In this document: piece after piece, positions 3,720-64,000 of the stretch
How the letters are laid out: the number at the start of each line of letters is the position of its first letter
How positions within the stretch are numbered: the stretch's first letter is position 1
DNA from: Methylotenera oryzisoli
GTDB taxonomy: Bacteria > Pseudomonadota > Gammaproteobacteria > Burkholderiales > Methylophilaceae
Assembly (NCBI GenBank): GCA_945872425.1
Contig: CAMBZE010000003.1
Span: 938-64,937, forward strand
Length of the DNA: 64,000 nt
Direction of reading: 5' to 3'
The notes under the pieces: model-generated
The model's database searches: none
Seen by the model: only the letters and a program-made list of their open reading frames with translations
What the model was told of the DNA's origin: nothing
Made by a program: the position numbers and the translations under genes

Positions 3720-3800
3720 ATGATGAAGCCCACCAAATACTCAATCTGCTGTGCGTCAATTGCTCAGCAGCTTCAATTTACCTCATGTCGCACCAAGTAA
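3720..3800 (+). CDS. Putative 26-aa Cys-containing leader peptide MMKPTKYSICCASIAQQLQFTSCRTK, in frame with acr3
   Basis: ATG 3720 to TAA 3800 read directly from the sequence; stop lies 3 nt before the acr3 ATG. RBS is weak and the ORF is below the track's length cutoff. Confidence 0.3.
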   Translation: MMKPTKYSICCASIAQQLQFTSCRTK

Positions 3801-3803
3801 ATC

Positions 3804-4862
3804 ATGACGACGAATACTAACTCTTCAGCAGATGCTCCAAAAATTGGTGCGTTTGAGCGCAACCTTACATGGTGGGTGTTGGCTTGCATCATCATTGGCA
3901 TCAGCCTGGGTAAGCTTAACCCTGCATTTTTTCAAGCGGCAGGCAGCATTAAAATTGCCGAAGTGAATTTGATTGTGGCCGTGTTGATTTGGCTGATGAT
4001 TATTCCTATGTTGCTAAAAATCGACTTCGGCGCCATGAGTGATGTATTGCAACATAGCAAAGGCATCGGCGTTACACTTTTTATCAACTGGGTTGTCAAG
4101 CCGTTCTCAATGGCGCTGCTGGCTTGGATATTCATCAGGCACTTATTTGCTGACTATCTGCCAATGGAACAGCTGGATAGTTATATTGCCGGGTTGATTT
4201 TACTTGCCGCCGCGCCATGTACAGCAATGGTGTTCGTATGGAGCGGACTATGTAATGGCGAGCCAAAATTCACGCTTTCTCAGGTCGCTCTCAATGACGC
4301 CATCATGTTATTTGCATTTGCACCTCTTGTAGCCTTGCTGCTCGGGCTATCCAGCATTACGGTTCCCTGGAATACTCTTTTCTTGTCTGTATTGCTGTTT
4401 ATTGTGGTGCCTGTGGTTGTCAGTCAGGTATGGCGCAGGCTGCTGTTATTAAAAGGTCAAAAGGCTTTAGATGAAACGCTTAAGCGCTTGCACCCAATTT
4501 CACTTACCGCATTATTGGTGACTTTGGTTTTGCTGTTTGGCTTTCAAGGGCAGCAGATACTGGCTCAGCCCATGATTATCGGTTTGCTGGCAGTGCCTAT
4601 TACCATTCAGGTTTATTTTAACGCCATGCTTGCTTATTGGCTTAACAAGCAACTGAAAGTTGCGCATTGTGTGGCCGGGCCATCCGCTTTGATAGGCGCT
4701 TCAAATTTCTTTGAATTGGCGGTTGCTACCGCTATTGCCTTGTTTGGTTTTAATTCAGGCGCGGCGCTAGCAACGGTTGTGGGGGTGTTAATAGAAGTGC
4801 CGGTGATGCTGTCGGTTGTATCCATTGTGAATCGCAGTCGTGGTTGGTATGAAGCCAATTAG
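3804..4862 (+). CDS. acr3: Arsenite efflux permease, Acr3 family
   Basis: FERNLTWWV, AAAPCTAMVFVWS (conserved Cys), GASNFFELAVA (conserved Glu), GVLIEVPVML; about 10 hydrophobic segments. Confidence 0.93.
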   Translation: MTTNTNSSADAPKIGAFERNLTWWVLACIIIGISLGKLNPAFFQAAGSIKIAEVNLIVAVLIWLMIIPMLLKIDFGAMSDVLQHSKGIGVTLFINWVVKPFSMALLAWIFIRHLFADYLPMEQLDSYIAGLILLAAAPCTAMVFVWSGLCNGEPKFTLSQVALNDAIMLFAFAPLVALLLGLSSITVPWNTLFLSVLLFIVVPVVVSQVWRRLLLLKGQKALDETLKRLHPISLTALLVTLVLLFGFQGQQILAQPMIIGLLAVPITIQVYFNAMLAYWLNKQLKVAHCVAGPSALIGASNFFELAVATAIALFGFNSGAALATVVGVLIEVPVMLSVVSIVNRSRGWYEAN

Positions 4863-4885
4863 CGTTTGAGAAAAAGAATGAATAA

Positions 4886-4910
4886 AAAAAGCACCCACAG
4901 GGTGCTTTTT
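4886..4910. terminator. Bidirectional intrinsic terminator between convergent acr3 and the PepSY gene
   Basis: aaaaagcaccc-aca-gggtgcttttt perfect hairpin with A/T tracts. Confidence 0.85.
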
Positions 4911-4931
4911 GTTGTTAGCATTAGGTAACGA

Positions 4932-5450
4932 TTACTCTATACCGATTTGATAGACTTCTTCCTCTGGTTCTTCTGCCAATTTACCAGTCACTGCATCAAC
5001 TTCCACTTCTACTTCCTTGCCATCAGCAGTTTTGATGTCGAATTCATAAGAAGGGTTGCCATTCGCTTCAACTGAGAACTCGGTTTCAATGATTTCCCCT
5101 GGTTGTTTAGCAAGGGCAGTCTTTTTGGCATCGTCTAGGCTAACCTTGGCTTTGCTCTTGAATGCAGCGTCATCCGCACTGGCAACTTCCATCTCTTCTT
5201 CTGTCACCTTGCCTGACTTGGCATCACACTCAACTTCCCACTCCTTGCCATCTTTACCTTTGATATCGAATTCATAAATGGGCTTACCATTTTCAACTTC
5301 CGCTTCGAGTGAGAGCACTTGGCCTGGGTGTTTTGCCAAAGCCGCTTTCATACAGGTTTCCATTTTTCCAGTATGAGCATGTCCACCGGCGTAAGCTAGT
5401 GTACTCATAAAAGCGGATGCCAAAGCTATTACCACTATTTTCTTGTTCAT
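4932..5450 (-). CDS. lanP: Periplasmic tandem-PepSY protein, lanpepsy (LanP)-like lanthanide-binding candidate
   Basis: Signal peptide (AYA-G); two PepSY repeats (YEFDIKGKDGKEWEVECDAKSG / YEFDIKTADGKEVEVEVDAVTG); about 36 Asp/Glu in the ~150-aa mature chain; C-terminus EEEVYQIGIE. The symbol is by resemblance only. Confidence 0.65.
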   Translation of the reverse strand: MNKKIVVIALASAFMSTLAYAGGHAHTGKMETCMKAALAKHPGQVLSLEAEVENGKPIYEFDIKGKDGKEWEVECDAKSGKVTEEEMEVASADDAAFKSKAKVSLDDAKKTALAKQPGEIIETEFSVEANGNPSYEFDIKTADGKEVEVEVDAVTGKLAEEPEEEVYQIGIE

Positions 5451-5635
5451 TTCAATCTCCTTTGTGACGTTAAAAATAAAAAATTCCCATCTGCTGCAAG
5501 CTTGATTATAATGAGATGTAAATTATTTTTCAAGAAATAACTTATTGATTTATATAGGAATTATGGTTTAATTCAGCCGAATAGTGGCTGTATATAACCA
5601 TATAAATTACCAATTAACTTTAAAGAAATGACGCT

Positions 5636-6277
5636 ATGGATAATGTGCCTGATATTGTTGACTCTGTACTCTACTTTTTAGCGGGATTATCTATCCTGAC
5701 TTGGACTATTTTGATAGTGAAGAGTTATGTGTTTTTGCGGCAAAAGCAAGCCAACATTGAGTTGCTATCCGGTTACGCTGGAGTCACACGTTTAACCAAA
5801 TTGCCTGAAGTGCTATACAAAGCAAAAGGGTCATTAAGCAGCCTTAGCAATAAGGCCATGCATGATCTTATTGCCTGGAACAAGGATGCTTCGCTGGACG
5901 TTAACGTGTTCCACGATATGTTGCGGCAATCATTGCGAGAAGAGCGCCATCGGCAACAAGTGCGCCTGGAAAGCGGTCTGGCTGTACTTGCGAGTATAGG
6001 CTCCACTTCGCCATTTATTGGCTTGTTCGGCACCGTATGGGGCATCATGCATGCGTTGAAAGGTATTTCTGCCTCTGGTTCAGCTGGCTTGGACGTAGTT
6101 GCTGGCCCGATTGGTGAAGCGCTCATTGCCACGGCTGCGGGTATCGCAGCGGCAATTCCCGCAGTGCTTGCCTATAATTATTTTTTACGTCAATCGCGCC
6201 TAGCTGCGGCAGATATGGATCACTTCTCCGAACGCTTACAAATACTGGCTAAACATTCAGATTACAAGGTAGATTAA
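5636..6277 (+). CDS. exbB: MotA/TolQ/ExbB proton channel
   Basis: LASIGSTSPFIGLFGTVWGIM, IGEALIATAAGIAAAIPAVLAYNYF. Confidence 0.92.
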   Translation: MDNVPDIVDSVLYFLAGLSILTWTILIVKSYVFLRQKQANIELLSGYAGVTRLTKLPEVLYKAKGSLSSLSNKAMHDLIAWNKDASLDVNVFHDMLRQSLREERHRQQVRLESGLAVLASIGSTSPFIGLFGTVWGIMHALKGISASGSAGLDVVAGPIGEALIATAAGIAAAIPAVLAYNYFLRQSRLAAADMDHFSERLQILAKHSDYKVD

Positions 6278-6278
6278 C

Positions 6279-6701
6279 ATGTCCATGGATAACCATGCTG
6301 AAGGCGGCATGATGAGCGAGATTAACGTAACACCGTTGGTGGATGTGATGTTGGTATTGCTCACGGTGTTCATTGTCACCGCGCCACTGCTCATGAATTC
6401 AGTGGCGGTCAAACTACCCAAAGTTGCAGCGACCACTTCATTGCAAAAAATGAATGACGTCAAAGTGAGTATTACCTCAGCGACTGAGGTATATATAGAT
6501 GAAACACAAATTGCCGCCTCAACTTTGGAAGCTGAGCTAAGAAAAAGAAATAATAAAGGGGATCTGCAAGTGCAAATCATGGCGGATGAAAGCGTAGCTT
6601 ATCGTGAAGTAGCTAAAGCCATGGCACAAATTCAGCGCGCAGGGGTGAGCAAGTTTACCTTTGTCATGTTGCCAGATAGCACTGTGCAATCTGCCCATTA
6701 G
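6279..6701 (+). CDS. exbD: ExbD/TolR biopolymer transport protein
   Basis: SEINVTPLVDVMLVLLTVFIVTAPL, IMADESVAY. Confidence 0.92.
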   Translation: MSMDNHAEGGMMSEINVTPLVDVMLVLLTVFIVTAPLLMNSVAVKLPKVAATTSLQKMNDVKVSITSATEVYIDETQIAASTLEAELRKRNNKGDLQVQIMADESVAYREVAKAMAQIQRAGVSKFTFVMLPDSTVQSAH

Positions 6702-6724
6702 TTATTGAATGGGCATAGGATTAA

Positions 6725-57884: not shown

Positions 57885-59366
57885 TCACGTCAGTTTCAGT
57901 GTGTTAAGTGTCTGTGTGCGCACTTGTTTGAGTAGATTTGCATCGTCAATCAGTGACTCACCAAATGATGGAATCGCAGTTTTAATTTTCTGCTGCCAGT
58001 CATTGTGTTCCATACGGTCCTTGAAACAGCGTTTCATTACATCTAGCATGGCTTGAACCGATACTGAGGCGCCTGGCGAGGCGCCTAGCAATGCCGCGAT
58101 ACTGCCGTCACTAGAAGTCACGATTTCAGTGCCAAACTCCAGTTTTCCACCTTTTTCATCACATTGCTTGATGATTTGCACACGGTTACCAGCCTCAGCG
58201 AGTACCCATTCTGAATCTTTGGCAGCAGGGTAATATGCACGCAAGGTATTCATGCGCGCTTTATGTTTTTGCAGGGACTCGCCGATTAAATAGCGCGTGA
58301 GATCCATATTGTTTTTGCCTACAGCTAACATTGACAATACATTGTTAGCTTTAACTGATTGTAGCAAATCGAGTTTTGAGCCTTGCTTTAGAAATTTGGT
58401 GGTAAAGCCGGCGTAGGGACCAAATAAAAGGGCGGGTTTGCCTTCAATTAAGCGCGTGTCCAAATGTGGCACAGACATTGGCGGCGCGCCAATCGCCGCT
58501 TTGCCATAGACTTTGGCTAAGTGTGTTTTTATTACGGCATCATTCTTACATACCAGCCATTGACCACTGACCGGAAAGCCGCCATAGCCTTTACTTTCCG
58601 GGATATTGGTTTTTTGTAATAAAGGCAGGGCACCGCCGCCAGCCCCTAAAAATACAAACTTAGCCTGCAGTGTTTTTGGATGTTTGGATATGGAGTCTTT
58701 TACTGCCACATGCCAGATGCCGCTTTTATCTTGTTTTAGTGTTTTTACCTGGTGATTCAACAGTAATTTGAAGTTGGCATTTTGCTGCATACTCGTGACC
58801 AAGTGACGTGTTAGTGTGCCAAAATCAACGTCTGTGCCATGGTCAACGCGTGTGGCGGCAATACGGGCAGTGGCGTCTTGGCCATCCATAACAAGCGGCA
58901 TCCAATCCCTCAATGTGGCGGCGTCTTCACTGTATTGCATCGCTTCAAATAATGGATGCCGACTTAACAGCGTATGGCGTTTTTTTAGAAAAGCAATGTC
59001 ATCATCACCCCAAACCACGCTTAAATGCGGTGTTTTATTGATAAAATTTTGTGGGGCGGGTAGCTTGTGTTTATCGACCAGATACGACCAATATTGTAGT
59101 GAAACCTCGAAAGCGGCATTGATGCTGAGTGCGCGTTTGATGTCTATATCACCATTCTCAGCTTGTGGTGTGTAATTCAGTTCGCAATAACCAGCGTGCC
59201 CGGTGCCTGCATTATTCCAACTGCTGGAGCTTTCGTGAGCGATTTCACCCAAACGCTCAACCATGACAATGGACAAGCTTGGATCAACAAGTTGCAGCAA
59301 TGAACCTAATGTGGCGCTCATAATGCCGCCACCCACTAATAACACATCCACTTTGTTTTCAGTCAT
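57885..59366 (-). CDS. mqo: Malate:quinone oxidoreductase
   Basis: LVGGGIMSATLG, NNAGTGHAGYCELNYTP, GTDVDFG, PPMSVPHLDTR, LLGASPGAS. Confidence 0.96.
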   Translation of the reverse strand: MTENKVDVLLVGGGIMSATLGSLLQLVDPSLSIVMVERLGEIAHESSSSWNNAGTGHAGYCELNYTPQAENGDIDIKRALSINAAFEVSLQYWSYLVDKHKLPAPQNFINKTPHLSVVWGDDDIAFLKKRHTLLSRHPLFEAMQYSEDAATLRDWMPLVMDGQDATARIAATRVDHGTDVDFGTLTRHLVTSMQQNANFKLLLNHQVKTLKQDKSGIWHVAVKDSISKHPKTLQAKFVFLGAGGGALPLLQKTNIPESKGYGGFPVSGQWLVCKNDAVIKTHLAKVYGKAAIGAPPMSVPHLDTRLIEGKPALLFGPYAGFTTKFLKQGSKLDLLQSVKANNVLSMLAVGKNNMDLTRYLIGESLQKHKARMNTLRAYYPAAKDSEWVLAEAGNRVQIIKQCDEKGGKLEFGTEIVTSSDGSIAALLGASPGASVSVQAMLDVMKRCFKDRMEHNDWQQKIKTAIPSFGESLIDDANLLKQVRTQTLNTLKLT

Positions 59367-59411: not shown

Positions 59412-61073
59412 CTAATCTTGTTTAACGTTTTTTTCTGCTGCTTGCGGATTAGCAAGCAGGACCTCTATATCTGTTTTTGTTAGCGTACTATTCGGCTGGG
59501 ATAAATCATTGCTCGTTGTATGCGCGCTATGAAAATCGTGACAAGACATGCAACCGCTGGCGATGCGCTTATGTTTAGGGCGATTGCCGGAGTGACAGAG
59601 CAAGCAAGATTTCCGATCCGGCATGGCGACATCGGCACTGCTTTCCGAGTTTTCAACCTGATGACAGGATGTGCATTGCTGCGTGCGGTGCAAGGCATGG
59701 TTGAATCGCGCTTTACTGAACCAGTCGGTGTTGATTAACAAGGGTGTGATGCGCCATGGGAGTGAATCGCCTTCTTTGGAATCAACAACATCATGGCAGT
59801 ATGCGCATCCTGTTGATTTTAATGTTTCCGAATAGCGGGTAAATTCTTTAGGGGCGTAAAGTTTTAATGTGTTCATTACGTTTTGCTCTGCACCATGCGG
59901 AACGCTGATTCTTGACCCCGCCGGACCAACTTTTAGCTCGCTGGCATGGCACGCAAGACAGTCGCGCTTGAATGATAAAGGCTTGAAGCGCATTTCTTTA
60001 CCTTCTGGCTGGTGGCACATCGTACATGACATTTCGCGCACATCGGAAAGCCCATTCGGCCCTTGAACTTTACCGGTATGCTGGTAGTGAGAAAATTTCA
60101 GGCCAGATTTTTCAATCAAACGCGCTTGATCTGTCTGCGGAACTCTAATGCTACCTTCATCATGGCTGGTCTTGAATGTTAATCTGAAGTCAGGGTGATC
60201 ATGGTCAAAATCATGAATATCTGACAGTGATGTTTTCGCATTCACAGACTTGATATTGCCGTGACATTTAATACACATGCCATCATCTTGCCGTGTGAGC
60301 GGAAAAGGAGATTTGTGCTCACGGTGACATTCTGCACACTGCGTGCCGCCTACAAATTTACGTTTGGCAACAAAAGCATGATGTTGCAATGCTTTATCTT
60401 CAATGTGAGGCGCAGTGTCGCGATGGCATTGCATACAGGCTTTGTCAGAAACGGGTTTAGTCAGCGTTTGGTGGCAATTGATGCATTGCGACCCAAAATG
60501 TCTATGGGCATTGGATACGTGTCCGGGACTCCATACCCGGTCAAAACCGAATGGTAGTTGTGCTATAGCCTCACGCAATTGCGGAACCAGGTTTTGTGCA
60601 ACGGGTAGGGCCACGAAGAACAGTGCGATCAATGCCACCATCCACAGAGACAGATGTCGTTTAAAAGCGGAAGCACCAGGCAGTGGCTCATGTGTGCGTG
60701 ATTTGATGTTTTGAAAGTCATCCGGCAGGCGGTTAGCAAGTGCCAGGGAGATTGCCAGATTGACATCGGGCGGCGCCGGTTCTACCGTTAATCGATAGGG
60801 GCCAACCATGACTTCTGTACCTGGAGTGAGCGGCACGTTTTGTTTTGTAGAAAACTCGACTTCCAGTTCGCCATTGATTGTGACTATATGTATTTCATCA
60901 TCGTGCATCCGCTTGATAACAGCGTGATGCATGGCAATACGAGGGTCTGGCAAATGAACCGTACATTCAGCGCCACGACCGAATGTGATTTCTTCAGCGA
61001 CTAAGGTACGATAACTGCGAACGGGCAAGCCGCGTGAGTTATGCGTAATTTTAATTAATAAACAATTGATCAT
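59412..61073 (-). CDS. FHA domain - single TM - decaheme cytochrome c (uncharacterised)
   Basis: FHA-like FGRGAECTVHLPDPRIAMHHA; TM SLWMVALIALFFVALPVA; ten CxxCH motifs: CINCH, CMQCH, CAECH, CIKCH, CTMCH, CLACH, CAYCH, CTSCH, CLLCH, CMSCH. Confidence 0.9.
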   Translation of the reverse strand: MINCLLIKITHNSRGLPVRSYRTLVAEEITFGRGAECTVHLPDPRIAMHHAVIKRMHDDEIHIVTINGELEVEFSTKQNVPLTPGTEVMVGPYRLTVEPAPPDVNLAISLALANRLPDDFQNIKSRTHEPLPGASAFKRHLSLWMVALIALFFVALPVAQNLVPQLREAIAQLPFGFDRVWSPGHVSNAHRHFGSQCINCHQTLTKPVSDKACMQCHRDTAPHIEDKALQHHAFVAKRKFVGGTQCAECHREHKSPFPLTRQDDGMCIKCHGNIKSVNAKTSLSDIHDFDHDHPDFRLTFKTSHDEGSIRVPQTDQARLIEKSGLKFSHYQHTGKVQGPNGLSDVREMSCTMCHQPEGKEMRFKPLSFKRDCLACHASELKVGPAGSRISVPHGAEQNVMNTLKLYAPKEFTRYSETLKSTGCAYCHDVVDSKEGDSLPWRITPLLINTDWFSKARFNHALHRTQQCTSCHQVENSESSADVAMPDRKSCLLCHSGNRPKHKRIASGCMSCHDFHSAHTTSNDLSQPNSTLTKTDIEVLLANPQAAEKNVKQD

Positions 61074-61076
61074 GTA

Positions 61077-61907
61077 TTACCAATAAGCAAAAACGGCAAA
61101 TATGTGCGCCACCATGGCCGCGAGCAGGGCAATGGTAAAAGGCACGTGAAAATATAGCCAGAAACCCAAACGTGCGCGGTACATTAAATCTTGCCTTGCG
61201 CGTTTGACCAGAGACTCACGACGCACCATGATGGAATAGAGTTCACGGTAAAGTTTGCGCTGTTCCATAGATAAATCATTGCCCATTGCAGTGAGTTGTT
61301 GCACGGCGATTGCCGATGGGCAGTTTGGCTGAAATCCTCTGAGCTGCTCAAGCAATCCAATACCAATTGAAGTTTCACGACAAGCCCGTGCAACGACATG
61401 GTTGATGTCATCCGGCATCACCAGCGCAATTTGACGCGCTAACTTATCAGCTTCTGCAATGCGTAACAGCAAGCCATCCAGATTATCTTCCCCCATATTC
61501 TCGGTCATTCGGCGTGGGTAAACCATATAGGTATAGTTGCCAAAAAATCCGCTGATGACCACGACCAACAATAGACCATAAGCAAGCGTGTGGATATTGA
61601 ACCCAAAATGAAACCCACTGTGCAGGGTGACAATTACTGTGAGCGCCGTGCCTAAATAAATATGCGCCGACAACCAGCCCTGTGTGGAACCCGAGCTGCG
61701 GTAGCGACGTTTGCGTACGCCATACCATGCCATCCACAATACCATCATTGCTGAAATCGAGCCCAGGGTATAACCAAGCCAGCTGCCGCCATAATGACCT
61801 ACTGCTGGCTCAAACAGCAGATATAAAACAAAGGCGATAAGAATCGCGATAGTCGCTAACTTGAGGTAACGATAGTGTTTATAGTCAAAAATATTACTGC
61901 GTTGCAT
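61077..61907 (-). CDS. Membrane protein with ferric-reductase-like bis-His pairs (putative di-heme b)
   Basis: About 5 hydrophobic helices; two His pairs 14 residues apart (AHIYLGTALTVIVTLH and FHVPFTIALLAAMVAH). Confidence 0.7.
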   Translation of the reverse strand: MQRSNIFDYKHYRYLKLATIAILIAFVLYLLFEPAVGHYGGSWLGYTLGSISAMMVLWMAWYGVRKRRYRSSGSTQGWLSAHIYLGTALTVIVTLHSGFHFGFNIHTLAYGLLLVVVISGFFGNYTYMVYPRRMTENMGEDNLDGLLLRIAEADKLARQIALVMPDDINHVVARACRETSIGIGLLEQLRGFQPNCPSAIAVQQLTAMGNDLSMEQRKLYRELYSIMVRRESLVKRARQDLMYRARLGFWLYFHVPFTIALLAAMVAHIFAVFAYW

Positions 61908-61921
61908 TCTGCTTATTCTTT

Positions 61922-64000
61922 CTAATGTTCGTCAGAACCAAGTAAAGCGGTTTCACCAGGGGTGCCGCTGGCGTAACCCAGAAGCTCCTCAGGGTTCACG
62001 CGTAGCGCAGCGCCTACCGGGCAAGCGCGCACACACATAGGACCTCCGCTAAGGTCCTTACACATATCGCATTTAACTGCTACTTTACGGTCTTCGGCAG
62101 AGGGCAAGGGTTTAGGGGTGATGTCAAGCAACATCTGCCATAAGCTGCGTTCCGGTTGATCTTGAATCACGGCCATCTGAATCACATCATAAGGGCAGTT
62201 TTGCTGGCAATTGCCGCAGCCGATACAGCTGTCGTCAATGTAAACTTCGCCGTGCGGCGCACGATGAATTGCATCAGGCGGGCAATCCTTCATGCAATGT
62301 GGATGCTCGCAATGGCGGCACGATGTCGGCACGCGAATATTAGCGAAAATGGGGCCAGTGTCACGATCTAGGCGCGAAGCCCCGCCATGCGTGTCAGCAC
62401 AAGCCTGTTCACAATGATTACAACGTATGCATAAAGATTCATCAATCAGCAGCACATCAGTCGCTTCACCAACGCCTTGTTGAATGAGAAATGAAATTAA
62501 ATTGGATTGCGTAGATTGACCGGTAACAGCACCACCGCCGTCCGCAGCGCTTTCCAACTGTTGGCGTTTCTCCTGCTCTTGTAAATGCTGAAGATAACGC
62601 GCATCCAGCTCACTGCGAATTTCCGGATTACGCGCAATGATGTCGCGCATACGATCAGCTTTAATCAACACCGCATCGGTGGCCACTGCCGCGCGTACCG
62701 TGGCGTAACGCGGCTCGCCGGAAACAAGTGACATTTCCCCAACATAGTGACCTGCTGCCACATAGAACAACACGACCTCTCTGCCACCAATCATGCGGGA
62801 TACGGTGACGGAGCCACTTTGAATGAGGTAAAGCCCATCCGCTTCATCGCCTTCGTGAAAAAAATCCTCGCCGGCGCTGAAGCTTTTAAGCTCAGCATGA
62901 CTAGCCAAATCGTTCAGGTCTTCTTCACTCAGTGAAAGCCCGATACACACGTGAACAACGCTCTTAATGGCGACTTCATTGAGCATACGGCGCATGGACT
63001 GCACGGAACCAATGAGTTTTTGCATCACTCGCCGTGGGGTTTCAATCAATACGCAGTGGGTACGGGCGCGTACGGTTCCTGCACGGCGACGGCCAGAAAC
63101 GAGTGCCAGCTCACCAAAAAAATCGCCCGTCTTGAGTTGTGCGTCTGGTACATCATCTACGTCAATTAAAACATCCAGCTCGCCTTCAACGATAGAAAAG
63201 AAAGTGGTGCTGTAATCATTGCGCTTGAAGATGATGTCTCCAGGCTTTGGTAGAAGGATGTTGCTTTCCAGTACCAGTTCGCGCAGTTGTAGCGTATTGA
63301 GCATCGCTAATAGCGGCACATTTTTTTGAATTTTCGTCAAAACATCATCAATACCACGGTCTGTGCAAAAGTCAGCGAATTTCTCACGCAGCAAAGCGGT
63401 ATCGGCAGGCTCCACAGCATTACCGAGTATGTACTCAATGACCTCATAACCCTGATTGATGCCTTGCTTAATGAGAGGGTAGCCAGCCAACGCGCCAATA
63501 ATATAGAGCCCGGGTACGTTGGATTCATAACTTGTGGAAAGCAGGGGCAGCGCACCTAAGTCAGACGTTGGAAAAGCAACGCCAAAGTTTTCCAGTAGTG
63601 GGCGTGACGGTAGGGCGCCAAGCCGTGCGATTATCCGGTGGCAAGGAATGCGTTCAGCCCCATTCGGCGTGTTGGCGTAAAGGGTGATGGGAAACTCGCC
63701 ATGGGGATTTTGCTCAATAGATTGTGGTTTTGTTTGCAGCAACCAGTCTATAGCACCTTTTTGGCGCGCATCCATGAGCTGACTCAAGTTGCTATCTTTA
63801 AGGTTACTAAAATCCTCGGCACGATTCAGTATCATCACCTGATTTCGACCAGTCAGTGCCAATGCGTTTTCTACGCCACTATCGCCACCGCCAACAATGA
63901 CAATGGTTTCATTCTGATAGTCTTTTGGATCATCAAGTTGGTATTGCACCTGCGGTAAATCCCCGCCCGGTATTTCCAGCTTACGCAAATTGCCTTGCAC
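61922..64000 (-). CDS. TrxR/FNR-type FAD-NAD(P)H oxidoreductase + 2 cNMP-binding domains + 4x[4Fe-4S] domain; 5'-truncated by the window edge
   Basis: IVIVGGGDSGVENA and YIIGALAG; FGELALVSGRRRAGTV and VGEMSLVSGEPRYATV; CIRCNHCEQAC, CRHCEHPHCMKDCP, CIGCGNCQQNCP, CDMC..PMCVRACP. Confidence 0.9.
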   Translation of the reverse strand: MQGNLRKLEIPGGDLPQVQYQLDDPKDYQNETIVIVGGGDSGVENALALTGRNQVMILNRAEDFSNLKDSNLSQLMDARQKGAIDWLLQTKPQSIEQNPHGEFPITLYANTPNGAERIPCHRIIARLGALPSRPLLENFGVAFPTSDLGALPLLSTSYESNVPGLYIIGALAGYPLIKQGINQGYEVIEYILGNAVEPADTALLREKFADFCTDRGIDDVLTKIQKNVPLLAMLNTLQLRELVLESNILLPKPGDIIFKRNDYSTTFFSIVEGELDVLIDVDDVPDAQLKTGDFFGELALVSGRRRAGTVRARTHCVLIETPRRVMQKLIGSVQSMRRMLNEVAIKSVVHVCIGLSLSEEDLNDLASHAELKSFSAGEDFFHEGDEADGLYLIQSGSVTVSRMIGGREVVLFYVAAGHYVGEMSLVSGEPRYATVRAAVATDAVLIKADRMRDIIARNPEIRSELDARYLQHLQEQEKRQQLESAADGGGAVTGQSTQSNLISFLIQQGVGEATDVLLIDESLCIRCNHCEQACADTHGGASRLDRDTGPIFANIRVPTSCRHCEHPHCMKDCPPDAIHRAPHGEVYIDDSCIGCGNCQQNCPYDVIQMAVIQDQPERSLWQMLLDITPKPLPSAEDRKVAVKCDMCKDLSGGPMCVRACPVGAALRVNPEELLGYASGTPGETALLGSDEH

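Follow-up and report, generated by a model that had tools for sequence, protein, structure and literature searches.

We analysed a 64,000-nucleotide stretch of Methylotenera oryzisoli DNA (contig CAMBZE010000003.1, here C3, positions 938 to 64,937; "the window" below means this whole stretch). At one end lies a gene, here called A, for a flavo-iron-sulfur protein with two consecutive cyclic nucleotide monophosphate (cNMP)-binding (CNB) domains, followed on the same strand by gene B, for a predicted di-haem b membrane protein, and gene C, for a decahaem cytochrome c. We think it fairly probable that A is the cytoplasmic electron-input head of a three-subunit wire from NAD(P)H to the periplasm across the inner membrane, with the CNB pair as a ligand-controlled switch. 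The cofactor motifs, their invariance, the gene order and a number of gene fusions can be read directly; from these we infer the formation of a complex, the direction of flow and gating by a ligand. An initial annotation, made from the letters of the window, overlooked this gene context, in which A, B and C would be the subunits of a transmembrane module encoded by three genes that are conserved together.

In the proposed wire, electrons would pass from NAD(P)H to flavin adenine dinucleotide (FAD) in a YpdA/thioredoxin reductase (TrxR)-like module of A, and from FAD to four [4Fe-4S] clusters in the C-terminal domain of the same protein. From the clusters they would reach a haem b on the cytoplasmic side and then a haem b on the periplasmic side, both held by four invariant histidines of B, and finally, in the periplasm, the ten c haems of C. 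The CNB pair would be part of an ancestral "CNB-CNB-FeS" unit docking on B, and most likely controls the entry of electrons as a switch or clamp that answers to a ligand. Where a lineage has kept the phosphate-binding cassette, this ligand would probably be a 3',5'-cyclic nucleotide. The features of the three genes in the window are as follows.

61922..64000, minus strand: gene A, flavo-FeS protein with tandem cNMP-binding domains, residues 127-818 (Pfam and database matches)
63389..64000, minus strand: in-window part of the YpdA/TrxR-like FAD/NAD(P)H module of A, residues 127-330 (GGGDSG at 63875-63892; no CxxC)
62969..63316, minus strand: cNMP-binding domain 1 of A, approximately residues 355-470 (cassette at 63071-63121)
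62579..62941, minus strand: cNMP-binding domain 2 of A, approximately residues 480-600 (cassette at 62696-62746)
61979..62452, minus strand: predicted four-cluster [4Fe-4S] ferredoxin domain of A, residues 643-800 (16 Cys in four motifs, HycB/DmsB type)
61077..61907, minus strand: gene B, 276 amino acids, five-helix inner-membrane protein (two W-x3-H-x13-H motifs and SGFFG; predicted di-haem b)
59412..61073, minus strand: gene C, 553 amino acids (FHA-like domain, one transmembrane helix, 10 CXXCH)
60777-61007, minus strand: cytoplasmic degenerate FHA domain of C (weak Pfam match)
60597-60653, minus strand: single transmembrane helix of C
59415-60506, minus strand: periplasmic decahaem cytochrome c domain of C (10 CXXCH)

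The three proteins and their cofactor motifs

The open reading frame (ORF) at 61922..64000 encodes the C-terminal 692 residues (127-818) of an 818 amino acid protein. The gene is clipped by the window end, and the first 126 residues, including the FAD-binding GxGxxG, lie beyond it. On the contig the gene is whole (C3 62859-65315): its ATG lies 378 nucleotides past the window end, at C3:65315, and the protein begins with MRKHFNVIIIGAGPSG (also given as MRKHFNVIIIGAGPSGLSAA). The GTG start given for gene A in the ORF listing is an edge artefact, as the reading frame extends on the contig to this ATG. The full-length gene that the initial annotation sought is thereby recovered, and every sequence feature that it listed for A is located on the minus strand.

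In the database, A is 100% identical to cluster P0001 and 81-89% identical to proteins named [quoted passage not shown]; "cyclic nucleotide-binding domain-containing protein" is the only annotation that its homologues carry. The protein has no transmembrane (TM) helix. An AlphaFold2 model of the entire chain is confident (pLDDT 81, pTM 0.69), and a fold search of the PDB with the whole of A matched only the N-terminal flavin module (TMq at most 0.36), with no solved structure covering more than one module. Conservation was read from an alignment of 32 full-length homologues with identities down to 32%, in which all 16 cysteines are invariant, as are the GxGxxG for FAD and the GxGD...E for NAD(P)H.

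Residues 1-310 are spanned by the Pfam families Pyr_redox_3 and Pyr_redox_2 (E 1e-30), with the NAD(P)H Rossmann motif GGGDSG at window positions 63875-63892; G163, G165, D166 and E170 are invariant. The initial annotation held that the module is no thioredoxin reductase, and this is borne out: VQYQLDDP occupies the place of the CxxC, and the protein scores 57.7 bits against a cut-off of 343 for that family (TIGR01292). The label "FNR-like", however, has to be replaced by that of a YpdA/TrxR-like flavoprotein with two dinucleotide-binding domains. The best match to the N-terminal 330 residues, both in sequence (E 4e-19) and in fold (TM-score 0.87, root-mean-square deviation 2.9), is the bacillithiol disulfide reductase Bdr/YpdA (7a7b); TrxR-type ferredoxin-NADP+ reductases rank after it (7a7b, 2zbw and 5ygq for the group). 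Nor does the module belong to the YpdA/Bdr family itself (TIGR04018; 123 bits against a cut-off of 340): the Cys of the GGGPCGL motif in Bdr is Ser14 in A and Ala in the consensus of the A family. Unlike YpdA/Bdr and the TrxR-type reductases, it is fused to CNB and Fe-S domains. We best read it as an NAD(P)H:FAD electron-input module. Of the HRR-type motif of TrxR only one Arg (R186) is conserved, and the sequence alone is not decisive as to a preference for NADH or NADPH.

The Pfam domain cNMP_binding (PF00027) occurs twice in A (E 2.8e-35; 120.6 bits against a gathering cut-off of 27.5). The cassettes FFGELALVSGRRRAGTV (63071-63121) and YVGEMSLVSGEPRYATV (62696-62746) each retain the Gly-Glu and the phosphate-contacting Arg, so that both pockets look intact, as first proposed; the cassette Arg is followed by Ala in domain 1 and by Tyr in domain 2. 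The best PDB sequence matches to residues 353-576 are the CNB-A/CNB-B regulatory tandems of PKG and PKA. Like these, A has two consecutive CNB domains with canonical G-E...R-x-A-T-V cassettes; unlike them, it has no kinase partner or helix-turn-helix, and its output would be an electron-transfer chain. Canonical cassettes are retained across Beta-, Gamma- and Alphaproteobacteria, and also in proteins of 460-481 amino acids that consist of two CNB domains and an Fe-S domain with no flavin domain.

Over residues 643-800, A matches the 4Fe-4S dicluster families of Pfam. The cysteines fall into four groups: C650-x2-C-x2-C-x3-C, C687-x2-C-x4-C-x3-CP, C718-x2-C-x2-C-x3-CP and C770-x2-C-x8-C-x3-CP. 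The sixteen cysteines in four DmsB-like groups that had been noted in the window are thus present, and are the same 16 that are invariant in the alignment. Four motifs of the CxxCxxCxxxC(P) type with 16 Cys are what characterizes a DmsB/HycB-type four-cluster ferredoxin, and the domain matches the four-cluster "wire" subunits HycB3/HycB4 (7qv7) and HycB (7z0s), together with the NCBIfam families HydN, AegA and DmsB. On this cysteine pattern, four Fe-S clusters are the best reading.

Gene B starts 14 nucleotides after the stop of gene A. Its product carries the motifs WLSAH...H96 (H82/H96) on TM3 and WLYFH...H268 (H254/H268) on TM5, with SGFFG on TM4. The four histidines are invariant in 18 homologues, very distant ones included, and the W-x3-H-x13-H and SGxxG motifs are invariant in 16-18 homologues. 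Five TM segments, SGXXG on TM4 and W-x3-H-x13-H on TM3 and TM5 are the marks of the di-haem inner-membrane protein ("IMP") of PCC3/PCC4 type, and B has them all. By the positive-inside rule, given the RKRRYR after TM2, H82 and H254 would lie near the cytoplasmic face and H96 and H268 near the periplasmic face, which would be a classic two-haem relay through the membrane. An AlphaFold2 model of B shows five long helices and a helical insert. The insert (residues 140-245; window 61104-61664, minus strand) comprises approximately 100 residues between TM4 and TM5, is modelled with pLDDT 83-96, varies in length among homologues and is predicted to be cytoplasmic. It is a candidate surface on which the Fe-S domain of A, or else the FHA-like domain of C, could dock.

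Gene C starts 3 nucleotides after the stop of gene B. Its Pfam FHA match is weak (23 bits), and Yop-YscD_cpl matches as well. The Gly-Arg and His of the FHA fold are retained. C is the only ORF with at least three CXXCH motifs in the whole assembly.

Gene order, fusions and spread of the trio

Acidobacteriota as well as Beta-, Gamma- and Alphaproteobacteria share the order A-B-C, always with 10 CXXCH motifs in C. Within the genus, five genomes carry the trio as a unit of its own, between differing neighbours. The modules are also found in other combinations. In a Kofleriaceae metagenome-assembled genome (MAG; locus L024, 6869-12909), one protein combines two CNB domains, Fer4 and B, and another combines four FHA domains, six CXXCH, Fer4 and FAD domains. 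In an Actinomycetes MAG (locus L023, 3901-11313), FAD is joined to three FHA domains, Fer4 to two CNB domains and a second Fer4, and a B-like protein (DUF4405) to five CXXCH. This domain shuffling is independent evidence that the parts of A, B and C work together. Could A instead be a stand-alone soluble oxidoreductase that happens to lie beside B and C? It has no TM helix, and its three redox and sensor modules would be enough for a soluble NAD(P)H:ferredoxin-like enzyme. Strict A-B-C synteny across phyla, intergenic gaps of 3-14 nucleotides and the joining of the modules by gene fusion effectively refute this alternative.

In other lineages the unit of two CNB domains and an Fe-S domain occurs without any flavin domain, and is still followed by a four-His B and a membrane-anchored multihaem cytochrome c. 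Because these flavin-less forms keep the same partners, the CNB pair belongs to the Fe-S and membrane side, with the flavin domain an optional N-terminal addition. The initial annotation described the CNB domains as inserted in a flavoprotein. Their position between the two modules is correct; an insertion into a flavoenzyme it is not, since the pair and its Fe-S domain exist without the flavin. The same annotation proposed that nucleotide binding could reposition FAD relative to the Fe-S chain. The flavin-less CNB-FeS forms do not fit a device whose evolved purpose is to shift FAD against the clusters. Together with the degenerate cassettes of several distant members and the lack of a cyclase in this genome (both below), they weaken this version of the gate, though they do not refute it. 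The wider idea of an electron gate is, at the level of sequence, neither supported nor excluded.

The family of A is large and widespread. A word-indexed search yields more than 6,400 database clusters, with 870 representative clusters at E < 1e-30. A is present in 20 of 121 sampled Methylophilaceae genomes and in 12 of 400 other sampled Pseudomonadota genomes (approximately 3%).

At most of the loci outside the Methylophilaceae, the trio is joined to three more genes (examples are L010 12031-16407, L021 12623-16376, L014 3-6990 and L020 13350-16628). The first encodes 665-705 amino acids with three HbpS-like (PF03928) repeats, the second approximately 610-640 amino acids with a weak match to a beta-barrel (Alginate_exp), and the third a large multihaem cytochrome with LVIVD repeats. 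By sequence this set looks like an outer-membrane extension.

Related systems and direction of electron flow

The trio belongs to a described but uncharacterized kind. He et al. (2017; Front Microbiol 8:1584, PMC5566968) reported gene clusters with a decahaem c and a 5-TM "IMP" with SGXXG and two W-x3-H-x13-H motifs, read as a di-haem b protein; in their "PCC4 subgroup II" and in porin-less clusters a pfam13247 Fe-S gene stands directly upstream of the IMP. The decahaem protein, the IMP motifs and the upstream pfam13247 gene are all shared by our trio, as verified in sequence. The complete porin-cytochrome form of PCC4 also has a porin and 4-/5-haem cytochromes, none of which is found in the locus or the genome. 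What the locus does contain, a multihaem c, a four-His IMP and an Fe-S protein with no porin, corresponds to the porin-less "MHC + IMP + redox protein" or NHC type of cluster. The Methylophilaceae copy is thus, by its gene content, a bare inner-membrane core in a minimal, porin-less form with a fused flavin domain. The cNMP and FAD domains were not described by He et al., who proposed inward flow to quinone.

A second relative is the ptdABCDEFG operon (bioRxiv 10.1101/2023.11.21.568154), which encodes an FAD/NAD(P) oxidoreductase (PtdC), a cNMP-binding Fe-S protein (PtdE), a ferric-reductase-like membrane protein (PtdF) and a decahaem cytochrome (PtdG). Likened by description only, ptd has the same modules in the same order as the trio (flavoprotein, CNB-FeS, membrane b-type, decahaem). 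The PtdC-like and PtdE-like parts form a single polypeptide in A, and the trio has no counterpart of PtdA (pentahaem), PtdB (porin) or PtdD (tetrahaem). That preprint counts two clusters, whereas the 16 invariant Cys of A indicate four. In the "NHC" cluster of Ferrigenium straubiae (bioRxiv 10.64898/2026.01.22.701106), genes for an FHA-TM-multihaem cytochrome, a 5-TM protein and a [4Fe-4S] protein stand together, and all three kinds are common to our trio. Nine haems are reported there against ten in C. No redox motif was seen in the NHC membrane protein, but the four invariant His of B argue otherwise, and the cNMP domains go unmentioned.

The family has therefore already been noticed bioinformatically, in three genome surveys, in none of which the cNMP pockets were examined; literature searches on ptd or on Methylophilaceae found nothing experimental. 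New here are the CNB-FeS core that lacks a flavin domain, the way in which cassettes are conserved in some members and decayed in others, the evidence from fusions, the finding that the FHA domain is degenerate, and the clean loss of the cyclase described below.

Two characterized systems share the logic of the wire. In NarH-NarI and FdnH-FdnI, a DmsB-type four-cluster ferredoxin is likewise coupled to two transmembrane bis-His b haems on two helices; the catalytic subunit there is a molybdopterin protein, in place of which the trio has a flavin/NAD(P)H module and sensor domains, and B is not detectably homologous to NarI. In NADPH oxidase and Fre-MsrQ electrons take the same course: they leave NAD(P)H in the cytoplasm, pass a flavin and two stacked b haems, and reach an acceptor across the membrane, with H-x13-H pairs on two helices as in B. 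Their flavin fold is of the FNR type, in contrast to the TrxR/YpdA type of A, and the trio adds a four-cluster Fe-S relay and ten c haems. B has no match to Pfam Ferric_reduct.

Inward electron movement is opposed by the membrane potential and by the potential gap between NAD(P)+ and cytochrome c. Outward flow is favoured for this reason, as electrons moving inward would have to climb from cytochrome c potentials to NAD(P)+ against the membrane potential. Outward transfer would be dissipative, and tight regulation would therefore be sensible. The opposite direction, in which donors in the periplasm (Fe(II)-derived, or cytochromes of methanol dehydrogenase) would feed the quinone pool or NAD(P)+, has been put forward for PCC4 and NHC in iron oxidizers (PMC5566968; bioRxiv 10.64898/2026.01.22.701106), and the family does occur in iron oxidizers and beside porin-cytochrome genes. 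We regard it as improbable here. The host is a Methylophilaceae bacterium of the methylotroph type that lacks an outer-membrane conduit and has no multihaem cytochrome besides C, and the Rossmann motif for NAD(P)H does not vary among homologues. For c-type cytochromes to reduce NAD(P)+ (about -320 mV) in opposition to the membrane potential would be doubly uphill, and no coupling device is visible.

To our knowledge, no bacterial electron chain of the respiratory type has been shown to be under direct allosteric control by a cyclic nucleotide, as opposed to control by way of transcription. The family would connect NAD(P)H in the cytoplasm with cytochromes of the periplasm and, in many lineages, of the outer membrane. 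Once its function is known, the annotation of extracellular electron transfer, iron oxidation and redox balancing in environmental genomes would be affected.

Counter-evidence, the missing cyclase and the genomic setting

Several observations weigh against the wire reading. On the side of B, the match to Ni_hydr_CYTB stays under the Pfam cut-off (28.1 against 30.1 bits; the matches are likewise sub-threshold in 15 of 16 B homologues), and the model of B has no significant PDB fold match. That search returned only generic helical bundles, all with E > 0.1, so no structural family can be assigned to B. On the side of C, the FHA domain lacks the canonical phosphothreonine-binding Ser (Ala or Asp in most members) and a conserved Asn-Gly, and with them the Gly-Arg, Ser-x-x-His, Asn-Gly pattern of a phosphothreonine-binding FHA domain. 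It is more likely a docking fold, as in the YscD-type FHA, than a reader of phosphothreonine, and what might be presumed a second regulatory input may for this reason be only a docking fold. As to an acceptor of C in the periplasm, the genome has no other cytochrome with three or more haem motifs. The remaining counter-evidence concerns the CNB domains. The cassettes are degenerate in several distant members (P0125, P0141, P0158, P0162, P0170, P0180 and L023) in which the cofactor ligands are all intact, so gating cannot be universal; and no class I, III or IV nucleotide cyclase is found in the genome itself, which is 98.3% complete.

The findings on B bear on an alternative in which B and C would work mainly as a quinol:cytochrome c oxidoreductase, much like CbcL, CymA or NarI, with A as an accessory or regulatory subunit and not the main source of electrons. 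The family that B weakly matches, Ni_hydr_CYTB, is one of quinone-reactive di-haem b proteins, and the fusion of B to a multihaem domain at L023 resembles the architecture of CbcL. A quinone-active cytochrome b was also suggested by He et al. (PMC5566968). Yet a four-cluster Fe-S domain is always encoded directly upstream of B, and is even fused to it, which mirrors NarH-NarI and FdnH-FdnI, where the Fe-S subunit lies on the main electron path. No quinone-site motif was identified, and the model of B, as noted, matches no PDB fold. We consider this alternative improbable. That the trio stands in for a missing bc1 complex was also considered and rejected: a cytochrome b (PF00033, 234 bits) is present on contig C13.

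The loss of the cyclase is real and a clean deletion. In two complete genomes of the same genus, the closest relatives, the sole cyclase lies between two genes that are adjacent in our genome on contig C37 (C37:2539-2671, against 3994-6717 at L097 and 3789-6446 at L098). Compared with these relatives, a class III cyclase (an ORF of 700-740 amino acids) and a neighbour of 143-161 amino acids are missing. An assembly gap was considered and rejected, as the flanking genes are adjacent on C37 with a spacer of 131 bp that contains no Ns.

Among the 121 sampled Methylophilaceae genomes, a class III cyclase is found in 19 of the 20 that carry A and in 65 of the 101 that do not (Fisher p = 0.0066, uncorrected for phylogeny or genome size). 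All 19 other carriers have the enzyme, and our genome is the sole exception. Two further CNB proteins are encoded in it, an FNR-type regulator and a YihY/BrkB-like membrane protein, and both lack the cassette Arg. This leaves A as the sole canonical cNMP receptor of a genome that is apparently unable to make cNMP. The retained pockets may reflect a recent loss of the cyclase, an exogenous or non-canonical ligand, or some other use of the pocket.

The membrane protein just mentioned is a 452 amino acid ORF at approximately 26000-27400 of contig C17 (plus strand), judged YihY/BrkB-like and multi-pass by eye only, with no family search. A cNMP-binding domain is fused to its C-terminus, in which the Gly-Glu is kept and Thr replaces the phosphate-binding Arg.

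Is the CNB pair then a sensor of cyclic nucleotides at all? CNB folds bind other ligands in CooA, NtcA and CprK. The wire could be real while its CNB domains, in this organism, serve as a structural spacer or dimerization module set between the flavin and Fe-S domains, or bind another ligand. The clean loss of every recognizable cyclase would be expected on such a view, as would the isolation of A as the one protein with canonical cassettes in its genome and the decay of the cassettes in several distant members beside 16 invariant cysteines. However, both cassettes are close to the PKA/PKG consensus, and the tandems of these kinases are the best PDB sequence matches. Without selection for phosphate-ribose binding, it would be hard to account for the conservation of the cassettes across Beta-, Gamma- and Alphaproteobacteria and in proteins that lack the flavin domain. 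The co-occurrence with class III cyclases in the Methylophilaceae also speaks for a sensor, and the loss in our genome may be merely recent. We hold the non-sensor reading to be possible but rather unlikely, and retain the ligand-controlled switch.

It is tempting to go further and to see in the trio a quinone-independent, second-messenger-gated "electron export valve", in which the CNB domains would switch electron entry and the pockets would read an exogenous or non-canonical nucleotide after the loss of the cyclase. Such a valve would be a functional analogue of NADPH oxidase in bacteria, made of unrelated parts: a TrxR-like flavin module, an Fe-S relay of four clusters, a new di-haem b family and a decahaem c. 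This extended proposal is tentative, and in our judgement doubtful. Whatever its function, the copy described here is useful as a minimal three-gene core in a small genome, which offers a natural "cyclase-minus" background.

A scan for promoters and terminators in the operon gave counts equal to the shuffled expectation, and was uninformative. The trio is flanked by Mqo on one side and a putative modABC on the other. Just past the window end (L002 9475-11798, plus strand), three ORFs divergent from gene A appear by eye, with no family search, to encode a molybdate ABC transporter (binding protein, permease and ATPase); their adjacency to the trio is not conserved in relatives. On the other side, 45 nucleotides downstream of gene C and on the same strand, lies the gene for malate:quinone oxidoreductase, Mqo (window 57885-59366, minus strand; 762 bits). 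As this adjacency is kept in three of the five loci of the genus, Mqo is probably inherited synteny rather than part of the module.

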